Numbered from the stretch's first letter, positions 52,013 to 57,760 are shown. The stretch is DNA of 64,000 nt from an uncultured Coxiellaceae bacterium (GCA_964597435.1 CAZQXH010000007.1:1-64000), one strand, 5' to 3'. Notes: generated by a model not told the origin, from the letters alone. Made by a program: numbers and translations.

Positions 52013-53124
52013 TGATAAGCCATGATTTTCGTGAATTAGCGAATGGCTTTATTCGTCAATTAACGCCGTATCAACCCGGCAAACCGTTAGAAGAATTACA
52101 ACGCGAATTGGGTATTGATGATGCTATCAAATTAGCCAGCAATGAAAATCCGCTAGGCGCGAGCCCTGCCGCAATCGCCGCAGGAATGAACGCACTCAAT
52201 CATGCCCACATTTATCCCGATGGGGGTTGCTTTGAATTAAAGCACGCCTTAGCCAACCATTTGCATGTAAAACCTGAACAATTAACCATGGGTAATGGTT
52301 CAGAAAATATCTTAGAATTAATTATTAAATCTTATCTGCATGCTGGCGATGAAGCAGTCATTTCGCAATATGCGTTTTTAACGATTCCCCTGTTATTACA
52401 AAGTTATGGTACTAACGTGCGTGTGACGCCTGCCAAAGAGTACGGCCATGATTTGAAAGCGATGCTCGCTGCCATTACCGATAAAACCCGCGTCATCTTT
52501 TTAGTTAATCCTAACAATCCAACCGGCACTTACACCCGTATTGAAGAATTTGAATCGTTTATGCAAGCTGTGCCAAAACACATTGTGGTAGTAGTGGATG
52601 AAGCGTATTCAGAATATATTGAAGCAGAAAACTATCCCAACACATTAAGTTATCTGCCGCATTATCCCAACTTAATCATCACGCGCACTTTTTCTAAAGT
52701 GTATGGACTCGCTGCTGTGCGCTTGGGTTTTTCCATTTCCTCATCTGAAATTGCGGATATTTTAAATCGCTCACGCCTACCCTTTAATGTTAACAGCATT
52801 GCCGCCGCCATGGGCATTGCGGCTTTATCCGATGACGAACACATTAAAAAAACCGTTGCATTGAATCGTTTAGGATTAATGGAATTAGCGCAAGGATTAA
52901 ATGCCTTAGCCATCCCGTTCATTCCTTCTATTTGTAATTTTATGACGGTAGATGTTGGCGATGGTAAAGCGGTTTATGAAACATTGTTACAAGCAGGCGT
53001 CATCGTGCGCCCCTTAAATGCGTATGGTTTACCCCGTCACATTCGTGTCACCACCGGTACTAGTGCACAAAATCAGCGTTTTTTAACAACGTTAAGTGCC
53101 ATTAAACAATCAGGGATGTTATGA
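52012..53124 (+). CDS. Histidinol-phosphate / aromatic amino acid aminotransferase (HisC family). It probably supplies 4-hydroxyphenylpyruvate.
   Basis: PLP class II fold; the lysine motif lies in TFSKVYGLAAVRLGF. The start ATG at 52012 overlaps the maiA stop (TAATG). Confidence 0.8.
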   Translation: MISHDFRELANGFIRQLTPYQPGKPLEELQRELGIDDAIKLASNENPLGASPAAIAAGMNALNHAHIYPDGGCFELKHALANHLHVKPEQLTMGNGSENILELIIKSYLHAGDEAVISQYAFLTIPLLLQSYGTNVRVTPAKEYGHDLKAMLAAITDKTRVIFLVNPNNPTGTYTRIEEFESFMQAVPKHIVVVVDEAYSEYIEAENYPNTLSYLPHYPNLIITRTFSKVYGLAAVRLGFSISSSEIADILNRSRLPFNVNSIAAAMGIAALSDDEHIKKTVALNRLGLMELAQGLNALAIPFIPSICNFMTVDVGDGKAVYETLLQAGVIVRPLNAYGLPRHIRVTTGTSAQNQRFLTTLSAIKQSGML

Positions 53125-54440
53125 CAATAACGTATCTACATGGCTTAGGAAATCACCACGAATCCAGTGCAATCAATGGTGCGTTGGTAGAAGGTTGTAA
53201 TTCACCGCAAAAAGTTCCATTTGGTTTATATGCGGAACAAATCAGCGGCTCAGCCTTTACGGTATCGCGTGCGAATAATTTACGTAGCTGGGTTTACCGC
53301 ATTCGCCCATCCGTTTTACACGGCGAATACCGCCCCCTTTCGCATCCTAATTTTCGTGGTGCACCCTTTAGCACAGACTATACGCCGCCCAATCCCATGC
53401 GCTGGAACCCCATGCCCTATTCAGAAAAAAAGCATGACTTGATCGATGGGTTATTCACTCTTGCAGGTCATGGTGACAACGCCCAGCAGACTGCAACCAG
53501 CATTCATTTTTACACTGCCACTTGCTCCATGCAGCGCTATTTTTCCAGTAGCGATGGCGAATGGTTAGTGGTACCGCAAGAAGGTGCATTACTGTTTCAC
53601 ACTGAATTCGGTTTGCTGGATGTTAAACCCGGTGAAATCATTGTTATTCCGCGCGGCATTAAATTTCGCGTCACGCTATTAGATGAAAAAGCCCGCGGGT
53701 ACATTTGTGAAAATGGTGGTTTACCGTTTCGTTTGCCGGATTTGGGATTAATTGGTGCCAATGGGCTTGCCAATCCACGTGATTTTAAAATTCCAACTGC
53801 TGCGTTTGAAACGACGGAAGGCGAGCTTGTGCACATCCAACATTATCAAGGTCGGTTATGGCAAACCGAGTTAACGCATTCGCCATTAGACGTGGTTGCT
53901 TGGCACGGCAATTATGTTCCCTACAAATATGATTTAAGTTTGTTTAATACCGTTAACACCGTGAGTTATGATCATCCCGATCCTTCTATTTTCACAGTAT
54001 TGACCTCTCCCTCTGCCCATCCTGGTATTGCACACGTGGATTTTGTGATTTTTCCACCACGCTGGATGGTTGCCGCGGATACCTTTCGCCCACCTTATTA
54101 TCACCGCAATGTCATGAGTGAATTCATGGGTTTGATTTACGGTGAATATGACGCAAAACCCACTGGTTTTACGCCAGGCGGAGCCAGCTTACATAATGCG
54201 ATGGTTGCACATGGGCCGGATGCTGAAGCTTATGAAAAAGCGATCCAATCGAACCTTGCGCCCCATTATTTAGATAAGACCTTAGCCTTTATGTTTGAAG
54301 CCCGCTCGCCCTGGTATATGACACAAAATGCCTATGAAGCACCCTTCAGACAAAATAATTATCAATCCTGCTGGCAAGGCTTATCTTCGCACTTTAAGGC
54401 CCAGGGCACGGAAGGGGCGACCCACAATTTGTCGGTCTAA
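53121..54440 (+). CDS. hmgA: Homogentisate 1,2-dioxygenase.
   Basis: 439 aa with HGD family similarity throughout. Confidence 0.9.
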   Translation: MTITYLHGLGNHHESSAINGALVEGCNSPQKVPFGLYAEQISGSAFTVSRANNLRSWVYRIRPSVLHGEYRPLSHPNFRGAPFSTDYTPPNPMRWNPMPYSEKKHDLIDGLFTLAGHGDNAQQTATSIHFYTATCSMQRYFSSSDGEWLVVPQEGALLFHTEFGLLDVKPGEIIVIPRGIKFRVTLLDEKARGYICENGGLPFRLPDLGLIGANGLANPRDFKIPTAAFETTEGELVHIQHYQGRLWQTELTHSPLDVVAWHGNYVPYKYDLSLFNTVNTVSYDHPDPSIFTVLTSPSAHPGIAHVDFVIFPPRWMVAADTFRPPYYHRNVMSEFMGLIYGEYDAKPTGFTPGGASLHNAMVAHGPDAEAYEKAIQSNLAPHYLDKTLAFMFEARSPWYMTQNAYEAPFRQNNYQSCWQGLSSHFKAQGTEGATHNLSV

Positions 54441-54449
54441 TTCGTAATT

Positions 54450-55142
54450 TCATGGCCGACAACGAAGAACATTTTCCTCTCTGTTTTCATTCTTCGCTGA
54501 GTGTTGAATATCCAGTATCCTGGCTAGTTCGGTCGCATTCTTATCTGCCACACCCAGGTTATTTATAAATCTGATAAAGGGAATGCAGTTCTCCCGCGCG
54601 TAACGTTCGGCGCTGTCAGCCATAAGCTTTTTTTGCGTATCATATTGCCTGACGCTTTCAGAATCATTGTCATCGCTGCGACCGCGCTTTTCCATGTAGC
54701 TCAGCCAGGTCGCCTTATCTGTTTCAACTAGCACCAATACATCGGGCCGGCACGATTCATCAACCCAGTTTCGTTCGGATAATGTTTGCAATTGTGACTT
54801 TTCCTGGGTGTTTATGAGGCCATACCACCACTGCATACTGGTTGCATTAATCAATTCTTTATTTACTAAAAATATACCAGCATCAGCCACGGTTTTATGG
54901 CCTTGTTTTGCTAGCGCGCGGGCTTCGCGGAATTTACTGACATTGGAGCGACATACCCAGTTTTCTATTCTGCCGACCTGCTCCCTCCAATCTTTATTAC
55001 GATCAATGTCCCATTCGTCTTCACCTGGTTCAATGAATACTTTTGCACCGATCTGCTCCGCCAGGGATTTGGCCAGCGTGGATTTACCTACGCCGGGGAG
55101 GCCGATTAATCCGATAAACATGCCTTCCGTTCTATTCTGCAT
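54450..55142 (-). CDS. Deoxynucleoside kinase family (dNK, dGK/dAK-like) P-loop kinase.
   Basis: P-loop GLPGVGKST plus the dNK motif LVLVETDKATWLSYMEKRGRSDDNDSE, compared with B. subtilis dGK FIIYIKASLPTLLHRIEKRGRPFE. Confidence 0.6.
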   Translation of the reverse strand: MQNRTEGMFIGLIGLPGVGKSTLAKSLAEQIGAKVFIEPGEDEWDIDRNKDWREQVGRIENWVCRSNVSKFREARALAKQGHKTVADAGIFLVNKELINATSMQWWYGLINTQEKSQLQTLSERNWVDESCRPDVLVLVETDKATWLSYMEKRGRSDDNDSESVRQYDTQKKLMADSAERYARENCIPFIRFINNLGVADKNATELARILDIQHSAKNENREENVLRCRP

Positions 55143-55450
55143 TTAAGGTTTCACTCCAATTAATTTGGTAAAAGAAACGACCTGGACTACCTGTAAAGTG
55201 AAGCCTAATTTTTAAGTAGCAAACCATGCAAGGCTAACGTCAATATCAGCAACAATTATTTTGATATCGTATCGTTAATTACACCGTTAAGTTTTCGGTA
55301 TGTGAAGCACTTCCATCACGCGGCGCGAAACAACCGTTATCAGTGCTTGTTGGTGGAAAAGCATCGGTCGATATTGTATTTCTACTGACTTACCGGCCCT
55401 TTACTTGTTTAAGTTTAGTGCAATAGGTGTATATTCGTCTAGAAAGTTCA

Positions 55451-55549
55451 TTGAGTTTTGGTCGAATACCACCTATACTACATTTAGCTCATCTACCATG
55501 TGTAGAAGGAGTAACGAAGCCGTTCGCAAGGGCGGCTTTAGCTTTTTTT
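55451..55549 (+). ncRNA. Candidate small RNA of about 64 nt. A near-consensus sigma70 promoter (TTGAGT-17-TATACT) is followed about 40 nt later by an intrinsic terminator. The RNA is convergent with, and overlaps, the 3' end of gene 55538..56041.
   Basis: -35 at 55451-55456 and -10 at 55474-55479. The terminator stem AAGCCG/CGGCTT spans 55517-55538, followed by a T7 tract at 55543-55549. The transcript carries a 5-bp hairpin TCTAC/GTAGA and an AAGGAG with no start codon after it. Confidence 0.35.
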
Positions 55550-56041
55550 GGTACCATTGGCTTTACAATAATCCTCATATTCTTTTAATAATTTTCTCTG
55601 ACGATGAGGTTGCTCTACTGGGTATGCAGTCCAGGGAAGTATATAATTATTACGTTCTGCCAAGATAACCAGATAGCTTTCTTTAGCGAACCACAGACAA
55701 ATTCTCCGCTCTCCATTGCGTTCATTTTGCCAAATTTTAATATTTGAGTTGTCGTTACTTTCAATAATTGGGCGTGGCCAGCGTATACGCTCACATCGCC
55801 TTATATCAGGAATTCGCTCGCTTTCTATCGCCCCCTCCTGAATCATGTGCCAAAAAGTTGCTTCCTTTCCATTTATCTCAGGATGGCGCTTTAAACCTAA
55901 TCGTCTTCCTTGAAATACTGGCTTTGTATCAACGAAATCATTCTTAAACCATGAATAAAGAGCATTTAGATATGCATCCCAATCTCCGCTATGATCCGTG
56001 AACAGAACAAGTGGCGGCAATACAAATGATGAACTATTCAT
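55538..56041 (-). CDS. Hypothetical protein (about 167 aa), translationally coupled 2 nt downstream of the DUF3800-like gene.
   Basis: The ATG at 56041 (MNSSSFVLPP) is preferred; the track start at 56065 is a TTG. No recognisable domain. Confidence 0.45.
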   Translation of the reverse strand: MNSSSFVLPPLVLFTDHSGDWDAYLNALYSWFKNDFVDTKPVFQGRRLGLKRHPEINGKEATFWHMIQEGAIESERIPDIRRCERIRWPRPIIESNDNSNIKIWQNERNGERRICLWFAKESYLVILAERNNYILPWTAYPVEQPHRQRKLLKEYEDYCKANGTKKS

Positions 56042-56043
56042 TA

Positions 56044-56751
56044 TTAAATCTCCGTCGCATGCCAACGGAAAAGATTAATCTTTTCTTCTCTTAATAAGGT
56101 TGTTTTTGTCAAGCTATAACCTGATCTTTGCCGTATTCGATTAATAATTGCCACTTTTCCAGTATTAGTATGTAATTCTCTATTAACATATGAAATAGCA
56201 CCAATTAATAAATCCGCTAATTGCAATTGTTCAATTTCATTAGAATGCACCAACTGCAAGCGTTCAATTATCTGTCGTGAAAAATCGTACATGTTGTTGC
56301 ATAGCACTTCATGCAACTTATGAACCTTTTGAGCACCTCGTGTATCTTTAATATCTAAATAAATTCGATAACAGTTATGTGGCCAAAGAATAGCTTTCAA
56401 CATATCAAAGTACATTTTGTAGTACCAACTGTCATGATCTTGGCCAAGAAAAGCGTCATGGCGTAATAAGGTTTTATCGGGAACAATTAAGGCGCGGAAA
56501 CGTACATCATCGTTATCAAAAAAATAATCAATAATATCCAAATAGAGATCAGTTTTAGCAGGAGATACTTTCACCCATTTAATTTCAAAATTGGGTGATA
56601 ATCCATGTTTCTGCTTGATTTCGCGAACACGGGTCGCAATTTCTCGAGTTTTATCTAATGGACACCAGATAGCACCCAGCACCATTACCTTCTGGCTATC
56701 GTTTTGCAAATGACAAGATTCATCGCAATAAACATTCATAATCTGCGCCAT
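56044..56751 (-). CDS. DUF3800-like protein (235 aa).
   Basis: The N-terminal M(AQI)MNVYCDES motif resembles the DUF3800 start (xIYIDESG). The ATG at 56751 has GAGAGG 6 nt upstream; the track start at 56754 is a GTG. Confidence 0.5.
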   Translation of the reverse strand: MAQIMNVYCDESCHLQNDSQKVMVLGAIWCPLDKTREIATRVREIKQKHGLSPNFEIKWVKVSPAKTDLYLDIIDYFFDNDDVRFRALIVPDKTLLRHDAFLGQDHDSWYYKMYFDMLKAILWPHNCYRIYLDIKDTRGAQKVHKLHEVLCNNMYDFSRQIIERLQLVHSNEIEQLQLADLLIGAISYVNRELHTNTGKVAIINRIRQRSGYSLTKTTLLREEKINLFRWHATEI

Positions 56752-56965
56752 CACACCTCTCTATCTGGCCTTGAGCCACTTCCATTAAATGGGCAATAAT
56801 TTCAGGCAAATAAACCAAAAAAGCAAGCTAATATACAGCAAAATCCTAGCCCACTCAGATTAAGCTTTTTAAGAGCGAAATGCTTTCTATCGGCTAGAAT
56901 ATAAGTATAGTATTTAGGAACTAAATGATTAATTATTTGCCAAATTTATGAAAAGGGGGGAGATT

Positions 56966-57760
56966 ATGGCACTAAAAAAAGTATCTAAATACGTTGCCAA
57001 GCCCGTGGACGACAATGGTTACACGCAATATACACCAGAAGAAGATGCCGTTTGGCAGGAATTAATTACCCGTCAAATTCCCATTGTGACGGGGCGTGCT
57101 TGTGATGAATACATGCGTGGCATTGAATTATTGAACCTTTCGCACGATCGGATTCCGCAATGCCCTGATGTGTCTAACGTGTTACGCGAAACAACGGGGT
57201 GGGCATTAGCTCCCGTCCCTGCCTTGATCCCATTTGATCGCTTTTTTGAATTACTAGCGAATCGCCAATTCCCGGCAGCTACCTTCATTCGTACCCGCGA
57301 AGAGTTAGATTATTTGCAAGAACCTGATATTTTCCACGAAATTTTTGGCCATTGTCCCATGTTGACCAACCCCGCGTGTGCGGATTTTACCCACACGTAC
57401 GGCCAACTCGGGGTCAAGGCAAAACATGAAGATCAAGTGATGCTTGCGAAGCTTTATTGGTTTACCATTGAATTTGGCCTGATTCAAACAAGGCAAGGTC
57501 CGCGTGTGTACGGTGGTGGTATTTTATCTTCCAAAAATGAAACACAATATTGCTTGGAAGATCCCCGCGTCATTCGCAAACCGTTTGATGTGCTGGATGT
57601 CTTACGGACCCCGTATCGCATCGACATCATGCAGCCTGTTTATTTTATGATTAGCGATTTTAATGATTTGTACCGATTAATTGACATGGATTTAATCGGT
57701 TTAATTAATGAAGCTCGGAAAATGGGCATGCATACCCCACTTTATCCGAAAAAAACATGA
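56966..57760 (+). CDS. phhA: Phenylalanine 4-hydroxylase.
   Basis: Biopterin-dependent aromatic amino acid hydroxylase catalytic domain, 264 aa. The ATG at 56966 has the RBS AAAGGGGGGA. Confidence 0.9.
   Translation: MALKKVSKYVAKPVDDNGYTQYTPEEDAVWQELITRQIPIVTGRACDEYMRGIELLNLSHDRIPQCPDVSNVLRETTGWALAPVPALIPFDRFFELLANRQFPAATFIRTREELDYLQEPDIFHEIFGHCPMLTNPACADFTHTYGQLGVKAKHEDQVMLAKLYWFTIEFGLIQTRQGPRVYGGGILSSKNETQYCLEDPRVIRKPFDVLDVLRTPYRIDIMQPVYFMISDFNDLYRLIDMDLIGLINEARKMGMHTPLYPKKT

Follow-up and report, generated by a model that had tools for sequence, protein, structure and literature searches.

We analyzed a compact unit on the plus strand of a stretch of 64,000 nucleotides (nt) from an uncultured Coxiellaceae bacterium (GCA_964597435.1 CAZQXH010000007.1:1-64000), hereafter referred to as the window, whose positions are counted from its first letter. 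In the original prediction, positions 55451-55549 were read as a promoter-to-terminator unit giving a small noncoding RNA. A -35 hexamer TTGAGT (55451-55456) and a -10 hexamer TATACT (55474-55479) indeed enclose a spacer of exactly 17 nt (55457-55473) at the positions given there, and the predicted transcription start, an A at 55486, is located 7 nt past the -10 hexamer. The structured small RNA (sRNA) of about 64 nt that would start from this site extends to 55549 and was detected by the covariance model R1 with 84.8 bits (E 6e-21), as the sole copy in the window. It is convergent with two adjacent genes on the minus strand, namely a gene for a partner protein of 167 amino acids (aa) at 55538-56041 and a DUF3800 gene at 56044-56754 (Pfam DUF3800, 5e-16). 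In PADLOC, the DUF3800 protein was assigned to PDC-M04A (2e-97) and the partner to PDC-M04B (2e-71), and the two proteins were found to be homologous to RlfA (53% identity) and RlfB (34%) of bacteriophage P1, respectively, and to RapA/RapB of phage P7. The partner protein matched no family in Pfam or NCBIfam. As described below, the conservation of the unit indicates that it is very probably an independently transcribed structured small RNA gene and the third component of the RlfA/RlfB cassette.

Judged in the window alone, the promoter and terminator motifs showed no excess over chance; a consensus scan of 5 kb gave 9 promoter-like sites against 12.6 expected from shuffles, and 2 terminator-like sites against 5.2. 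The unit rises above chance because it is conserved in unrelated genomes. Folding of the 64-nt RNA, one of the checks proposed together with the prediction, gave -23.6 kcal/mol (z = -3.3), and none of 200 shuffles was equally stable.

To compare the unit between genomes, contigs with an identical protein (L001-L003) were set aside as belonging to the same strain. The four closest relatives of the partner protein (73-78% identity) are encoded in unrelated contexts, such as a type I restriction system or an aminotransferase regulator, and in each case a block of about 100 bp right after the stop codon comprises the hairpin, a near-identical core, and the reverse complements of the -10 and -35 hexamers. 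Similarity between the loci ends just upstream of the -35 hexamer. A scan with an alignment of the partner protein, using one genome per species, extended the comparison to 80 loci, in which Gammaproteobacteria, Desulfobacterota, Chlorobiota, Nitrospirota, Chloroflexota, Planctomycetota, Bacteroidota, Spirochaetes, Acidobacteriota, and others were represented. With a profile made from five sequences, the block was found in 85 of 88 loci, always directly 3' of the partner gene and on the opposite strand. The three loci without it were contigs ending at the partner gene, and the promoter-terminator unit thus accompanies the genes in all 77 assessable species, which bears out the conservation that had been named as a second check. 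Both the DUF3800 gene and the partner gene were present in 69 of 71 aligned loci. In addition, a search from the RNA side, in which metagenomes were scanned with the degenerate 31-nt core, revealed a convergent partner gene in 95 of 115 assessable matches, the RNA 3' end being 0-36 nt from that gene save for two partial matches at 56 and 73 nt.

The promoter columns were examined in 81 distinct loci aligned on the conserved core. At -36 to -31, the consensus was TTGACT (T 64, T 69, G 49, A 49, C 31, and T 47 of 81), while a TATAAT-like hexamer occupied -13 to -8, with A 67, T 61, A 60, and T 70 of 81. The spacing between them was always 17 nt, whereas the 17 positions themselves were unconserved; the A located 7 nt past the -10 hexamer was invariant (81/81), and an A-rich patch was also observed at -45 to -41. 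Two conserved hexamers, a free spacer of fixed length, and an invariant purine at the expected start constitute the signature of a sigma-70 promoter, and conservation of this type is not that of a protein-coding or recombination sequence.

The secondary structure was assessed with alignment A2, which was constructed with MAFFT from 71 distinct sequences and scored on three helices, P1, P2, and P3 (19 pairs). In RNA numbering, helix P1 pairs nucleotides 2-5 with 24-27 (55487-55490 with 55509-55512) and helix P2 pairs 7-11 with 17-21 (55492-55496 with 55502-55506), the latter being closed by the loop CAUGU (55497-55501). An internal loop places A 55491 opposite A 55507 and G 55508. The two stacked helices form a 5' domain (55487-55512), in agreement with RNAalifold and covariation. 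The AAGGAG noticed in the original prediction is present at 55507-55512, not as an orphan ribosome-binding site but as the 3' side of helix P1 together with part of the internal loop. A conserved single-stranded linker, AAC (55513-55515), which belongs to the UAAC of the near-invariant GAGUAACG, leads to the terminator hairpin P3, in which ten pairs including three G-U (55516-55525 with 55530-55539) are closed by the loop GCAA. The stem is accordingly longer than the 6 bp proposed at first, although the run of seven T residues ending at 55549 was confirmed. The terminator is atypical in that the 3' tail, AGC followed by U7 (55540-55549), parts the stem from the U-run by the conserved AGC; the U-run is usually 3-5 nt across the family, U7 of the window being at the long end. 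The stem was always present, and the GC of the AGC was invariant or nearly so.

Standard pairs were formed in 99.0% of the 1349 pair cells of alignment A2, and double changes with pairing kept were found at 12 of the 19 pairs. In helix P3, compensatory double changes affected 9 of the 10 pairs; helix P2 showed C-G/U-A and U-A/C-G exchanges, with 36 of its cells being G-U, and helix P1 a single double change. None of 500 shuffles reached the pairing values, partners slid by 1-3 columns paired in only 36-56% of cells, and RNAalifold, run independently, gave the identical structure. Furthermore, since 210 of the cells were G-U, only 84.1% of the pairs would be possible on the opposite strand, and the strand preference deduced from G-U agreed with the orientation of the promoter. 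In four loci (L072, L085, L087, and L044, including Pseudomonas and Marinobacter metagenome-assembled genomes (MAGs)), the loop of helix P2 carries an extra stem-loop of 10-17 nt; this insertion removes the CAUG, and the loop sequence is therefore not essential in all lineages.

The 5' 31 nt of the RNA, AGCUCAUCUACCAUGUGUAGAAGGAGUAACG, was near-invariant while the proteins diverge to 55-78% identity. The A at RNA position 29 (55514) was invariant in alignment A2 and the C at position 30 (55515) near-invariant. The approximately 30 most conserved nucleotides fall outside the overlap with the partner-coding sequence and are near-invariant across phyla. At the other end, the RNA overlaps the 3' end of the partner gene as predicted, the 3' tail covering its last codons and the stop codon (55538-55540) sharing the final two stem bases of helix P3. 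The stop codon overlaps this stem exactly as in the window in 33 of 58 loci and lies 2-8 nt further into the RNA tail in 23, and the coding sequence overlaps the RNA by at most about 12 nt of the tail beyond the stop codon. We take this convergent overlap to be secondary, reflecting either compaction or a coupling between both transcription units.

With regard to coding potential, the 87-aa open reading frame (ORF) at 55405-55668 is present, as had been pointed out. The P3 hairpin, however, differs in length by non-multiples of 3 in 29 of the 71 sequences, and these frame-breaking lengths, together with the lack of any Pfam family for the overlapping ORFs, indicate that the block is not coding. 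Coding by the 87-aa ORF or by a 53-aa ORF was accordingly rejected: neither gave a Pfam family above the threshold, the region that they cross is unconserved, and the length changes break their frames. The view of the unit as a compact, noncoding plus-strand unit producing an RNA of about 64 nt convergent with the partner gene is strongly supported by the promoter conservation, the invariant start, the covariation, and the strand-specific G-U pairs.

No Rfam 15 family for this RNA was found either at the gathering threshold in the window and 20 further loci, or under permissive conditions (E up to 10) in the window, phage P1, and locus L013. The same scans detected DUF3800-V and DUF3800-VIII RNAs elsewhere, demonstrating that the Rfam models were working. 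Eleven structurally unrelated RNA motifs beside DUF3800 genes, several of them with terminators and with UAA frequent, were described in 2017 by Weinberg et al., with no known function (PMC5737381). As the RNA matched none of the DUF3800-I to -XI models, it represents a further class of that kind rather than a described motif; from its sequence and neighborhood, it looks like a further class of DUF3800-associated structured RNAs that is not in the RNA databases searched. It resembles the DUF3800-I to -XI motifs (PMC5737381; RF02964, RF02968, RF02969, RF03075, and others) in being a small structured RNA with a DUF3800 neighbor in several phyla, in having a putative Rho-independent terminator of its own, and in containing UAA. 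Meanwhile, the motifs of 2017 vary in side and orientation relative to the gene, whereas this RNA is fixed, convergent, and overlapping the rlfB stop codon; also, the portion of PMC5737381 at hand mentions no protein-less copies in phage transfer RNA (tRNA) arrays for those motifs. Later papers, PMC10910872 among them, merely cite the 2017 description, and no functional work on DUF3800 RNAs after 2017 was found in the literature searched.

The covariance model built from alignment A2 also identified the RNA in phage P1 (47.7 bits, E 3e-12; NC_005856.1, complement of about 52902-52976, corresponding to L221 2903-2977, minus strand), where it overlaps the last 7 nt of rlfB within the gap before pmgF. 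No RNA is annotated at this site in the P1 records. The 141 bp containing the P1 copy were found in 121 of 5426 complete Escherichia coli genomes, mostly on plasmids; 123 RefSeq records of E. coli likewise have no RNA annotated at the site, and no feature is annotated under the match in the 12 E. coli records listed. Thus, P1 rlfA-rlfB ("replication-linked function"; P7 rapA-rapB) shares with the cassette of the window both homologous proteins and the same RNA directly after rlfB. The settings differ: in P1 the pair adjoins the lytic replicon kilA-repL and is preceded by a C1 operator in the rlfA promoter region, whereas here the cassette stands isolated between chromosomal metabolic genes. 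The P1 papers examined discuss rlfA and rlfB solely as genes, which they describe as "possibly associated with lytic replication" and non-essential. A complete three-part cassette was likewise found in Bifidobacterium phage Bbif-1. The conserved association with the RNA indicates that PDC-M04 is a system of three parts, not two.

The RNA unit can also exist and persist without the cassette proteins. In the metagenomes, 20 of the 115 assessable matches lacked the partner gene, and about half of the 20 retained promoter and terminator; these promoter-keeping orphans adjoin decayed remnants or other genes, with traces of the partner 3' end retained in L105, L130, and L175. The other partner-less metagenome copies resemble phage DNA. 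Full-length copies (47-87 bits) unaccompanied by RlfA/RlfB are further carried by Bacillus phage phi3T and related phages, Vibrio phage 1.084.O, and 8 IMG/VR contigs. All 8 IMG/VR matches (6 distinct) were without both proteins within the stored approximately ±5 kb. A close RlfB relative was found in only one viral contig, and the RNA is present there. Geobacillus phage PT9.1 gave a partial blastn match covering about half of the RNA. Searching 50,697 phage records with tblastn for homologues of the proteins revealed none of RlfA/RlfB in phi3T, Vibrio phage 1.084.O, or Geobacillus phage PT9.1.

Two of the loci deserve separate description. In L101 (1177-1390), just 37 N-terminal rlfA codons are left beside an intact RNA gene, and in L156 (8447-9294), where RlfB is absent, the RNA converges on a different gene of the DUF3800 family that is apparently split in two ORFs. 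The two cases together suggest a tie of the RNA to the DUF3800 protein, with the RNA gene outliving the proteins.

The phage-type copies lack their own promoter and share the strand of the tRNAs. The RNA was found inside an array of 31 tRNAs, also holding a transfer-messenger RNA (tmRNA) gene, in a 133-kb contig (L091), inside an array of 10 tRNAs (L198), 5 nt past a tRNA (L089), and beside tRNAs (L118, L180, and L169); neighbors of the phage-type copies include genes for a P22-type portal, a ClpP-type protease, and a family A DNA polymerase. In the model-fitted alignment, these copies keep the three helices with 97.5% of pairs formed, while the U-tract is often lost. Since helix P3 is kept in copies without the U-tract, it is part of the RNA and not merely a terminator. 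In Vibrio phage 1.084.O, the RNA (58.5 bits) lies in an unannotated stretch of about 1 kb with a tRNA, where further tRNA-like elements were seen by eye.

In phi3T and relatives, the RNA (56 bits; KY030782.1, complement of about 49084-49018, L217 3001-3067) lies in a 700-nt noncoding gap; in phi3T, a DUF3800-VIII RNA (44.7 bits, gathering score 40.2; complement of about 48963-48898, L217 3122-3187) follows 55 nt downstream on the same strand. No DUF3800 domain was found among the nine proteins flanking this pair. Promoter-like sequences are repeated within the gap, which has the appearance of a small array of orphan RNAs from DUF3800 systems. A second case of neighboring DUF3800-type RNAs was seen in an Anammoxibacter MAG (L047), in which a DUF3800-V RNA (RF02964, 40.7 bits; 3921-4016, minus strand) is about 340 nt from this RNA in a noncoding stretch of about 1.5 kb.

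Further associations were observed for single copies. In a phage-like metagenome contig (L143), the RNA (1472-1534) lies within a match to a permuted tmRNA family (1409-1721; RF04321, 75.8 bits), where by eye an acceptor-piece-like 3' end and a coding-piece-like 5' end flank it, apparently placing it in the spacer of a two-piece tmRNA; tmRNA genes are also near the RNA in L091 and L216. In a viral contig (L096, 1124-3533), an orphan RNA lies between a DnaB-like helicase gene, read by eye, and the gene for a 777-aa protein with a weak match to an RNA-ligase domain (Pfam 2.8e-5, below the family cut-off), which hints at an RNA-repair context.

Several known properties of DUF3800 proteins bear on the function of the RNA. 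They are assigned an RNase H-like fold (PMC10910872) and have been linked to putative noncoding RNAs (PMC5737381), and type VII retrons have DUF3800 as their associated gene or domain (PMC7736814). In Legionella pneumophila HL77S, the accessory DUF3800 gene HL77S_00079 scored as essential in transposon sequencing and was discussed alongside antitoxin genes (bioRxiv 10.1101/2020.10.01.323287). The RNase H-like fold, the retron association, and the Legionella essentiality together suggest a toxin-antitoxin-like logic. In the mechanism that we propose, the RNA would be a specific ligand of RlfA and/or RlfB that acts in trans through the folded 5' domain with its invariant sequence; made constitutively, it would hold the DUF3800 module inactive, as a type III RNA antitoxin or the multicopy single-stranded DNA of a retron does, and its loss or alteration during infection would release the activity of the module. 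Phages with protein-less copies, often co-transcribed with tRNAs, would then use these copies as decoys keeping the module silent. Antisense pairing would be insufficient as an explanation, because it accounts for neither the invariance of the core nor the orphan copies. We consider the restraining-ligand and decoy mechanism plausible but hold it at slightly below even chances. For the statement as a whole, that is, a real sRNA gene that is a cassette component, a restraining ligand, and a source of phage decoys, we put the probability at roughly one half.

A comparable arrangement is offered by type III toxin-antitoxin systems such as ToxIN, which may resemble the cassette in having an abundant RNA that neutralizes the protein effector of a candidate abortive-infection module and in the existence of phages with RNA-only copies. 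Phages escape ToxIN with pseudo-ToxI RNA. There, however, tandem repeats are located upstream and co-transcribed, whereas here a single copy is convergent and downstream; in addition, the cassette proteins are unrelated to ToxN. Type VII retrons (reverse transcriptase, DUF3800, and msr/msd RNA; PMC7736814) similarly combine a DUF3800 protein with a dedicated structured nucleic acid in a defense-type module. They differ in that the present cassette is without a reverse transcriptase, none being found among its neighboring genes, and in that the 64-nt RNA is without retron-like inverted repeats.

Several points weigh against the restraining-ligand reading. Given the C1 operator at P1 rlfA, the proteins may be made mainly in lytic growth, and mainly lytic expression may fit a resident defense or toxin-antitoxin module poorly; both rlfA and rlfB of P1 were dispensable in a CRISPR interference screen. 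The term "defense" itself is only the candidate label of PADLOC, and nothing on PDC-M04 was found in the literature searched. The partner offers no fold to build on, since AlphaFold2 on 26 sequences gave a predicted local distance difference test score of 66 and Foldseek against the PDB gave nothing at E <= 1e-3. The Legionella result would fit DUF3800 as the neutralizing partner, not the toxin. As for the decoys, about 5 kb on each side was covered in the metagenomic and IMG/VR orphan phages, which may carry a distant DUF3800 gene. Finally, we infer the start at 55486 and the RNA end, along with every functional step.

The sign of the RNA's action could also be the reverse. As a positive cofactor, it would be required by RlfA/RlfB as a scaffold, specificity determinant, or processed substrate, and the phage copies would be self-serving or dominant-negative mimics. 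In favor of this, DUF3800 proteins accompany RNA-guided systems such as Cas12a2/a3 and Cas13, DUF3800 genes have eleven other structured RNAs as neighbors, a ribonucleoprotein fits the extreme conservation seen at unpaired positions, and rlfAB of P1 reside in the lytic replication module. Nevertheless, phages without RlfA/RlfB would gain nothing obvious by supplying an activator of a host system, and a variable guide-like segment is absent, the terminator stem alone varying, and this by compensation. We regard a cofactor role as rather unlikely.

The original prediction took the RNA for a cis-antisense RNA reminiscent of type I antitoxins and 3'-overlapping regulators, in which case it would pair with the 3' end of the partner messenger RNA (mRNA) or with a read-through 3' untranslated region, and set the level of the operon via RNase III or interference between convergent transcription. 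Without exception, the two genes are convergent and the RNA tail covers the stop or last codons of the partner gene. Moreover, the terminator scan found no good terminator for the minus-strand operon ahead of the RNA gene, and read-through operon transcripts would therefore be fully complementary to the sRNA. Like the 3'-overlapping type I toxin-antitoxin systems and cis-antisense sRNAs, the cassette has a convergent sRNA with overlapping 3' ends. In the type I systems, however, the toxin is small (less than about 60 aa) and usually hydrophobic, whereas the partner here is a conserved 167-aa protein with no sign of a membrane peptide. The overlap amounts to the stop codon and a few codons, and pairing requires no sequence conservation, yet the near-invariant core lies outside the coding sequence, the covariation is typical of a folded RNA, and orphan copies occur without the partner gene. 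These features leave the proposed type-I-antitoxin-like role weakly supported, and a cis-antisense function is in our estimation unlikely. A trans-antisense target in the operon mRNA outside the overlap was also sought and rejected, the best predicted duplexes having a mean energy of -22.2 kcal/mol against -22.5 kcal/mol for shuffled RNA.

A further alternative inverts the roles of RNA and protein, as in type VIII systems: the sRNA would harm a conserved cellular target, the RNase H-like DUF3800 protein would neutralize it, and the phage orphans would be host-shutoff weapons. The accessory DUF3800 gene of Legionella behaves as essential, and near-invariance over many phyla would be in keeping with a universal target. 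The AAGGAG and the stretch AUG-UGU-AGA-AGG of the RNA loosely resemble CreT. A CreT-like mini-ORF was nonetheless rejected, as its AUG and AGA are not conserved: at least 5 of the 71 sequences and the insertion variants have lost the AUG, and the AGA codon changes to GGA or AAA through helix covariation. Mimicry of the 16S decoding site or 23S H81, for which AAAGAGUAACGGAG showed a likeness by eye, was rejected as well, since the alignment to E. coli rrn was no better than that of shuffles, 324 of 500 reaching the score. In addition, the host-type orphans L101, L105, and L175 keep a strong promoter beside decayed protein genes and are apparently tolerated. An RNA toxin thus appears quite improbable.

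It is highly improbable that the block is no RNA gene at all but serves as the 3' untranslated region or terminator of the operon, marks a site of recombination or attachment at the edge of the cassette, or belongs to one of the small ORFs. It does sit exactly at the cassette boundary, where similarity ends just upstream of the -35 hexamer, and the 87-aa and 53-aa ORFs overlap it. Yet it shows two hexamers conserved around a free 17-nt spacer, a strand-specific fold (99% against 84% of pairs), and frame-breaking hairpin lengths, and phage tRNA operons contain copies of it on the same strand as the tRNAs.

More generally, DUF3800 modules might be nucleic-acid-gated effectors, each class being checked by its own small structured RNA and countered by phages with RNA decoys in tRNA operons; the tandem of phi3T, the copies in arrays of 10-31 tRNAs, and the copy in a two-piece tmRNA spacer are examples in line with such gating, but we consider the generalization speculative and lean against it. 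If it were true, it would point to an unrecognized and widespread RNA-based arms race and would explain the purpose of the DUF3800 RNA motifs. RNAs neighboring DUF3800 genes have lacked a function since their description in 2017, and the present class is unusually tractable: its presence in P1, E. coli plasmids, and phi3T makes its function testable in E. coli and Bacillus subtilis by standard genetic methods. A concrete hypothesis, that of an RNA decoy against a DUF3800 module, comes from the protein-less copies in phage tRNA arrays, which would also extend the idea of phage tRNA clusters as carriers of counter-defense cargo. A third part of PDC-M04 would also matter whenever the cassette is cloned for defense tests.

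As to the surroundings of the cassette, the run of minus-strand genes to which it belongs is flanked by hmgA (53121-54440, plus strand) on one side and a phenylalanine-hydroxylase-like gene (56948-57760, plus strand) on the other, and ARAGORN found no tRNA or tmRNA in the window. The run also contains a gene for a dNK/AAA-like kinase (54450-55142, minus strand), for which weak PADLOC matches were obtained (PDC-M51B 1e-8 and VakA 1e-8); on this basis, the stretch from hmgA to the hydroxylase gene may be a small defense island rather than a single cassette. The interval that separates the start of the kinase gene from the sRNA promoter (55143-55450, about 300 nt) has no similarity to the other loci, no convincing ORF, and no Rfam match, and presumably holds the promoter of the kinase gene.

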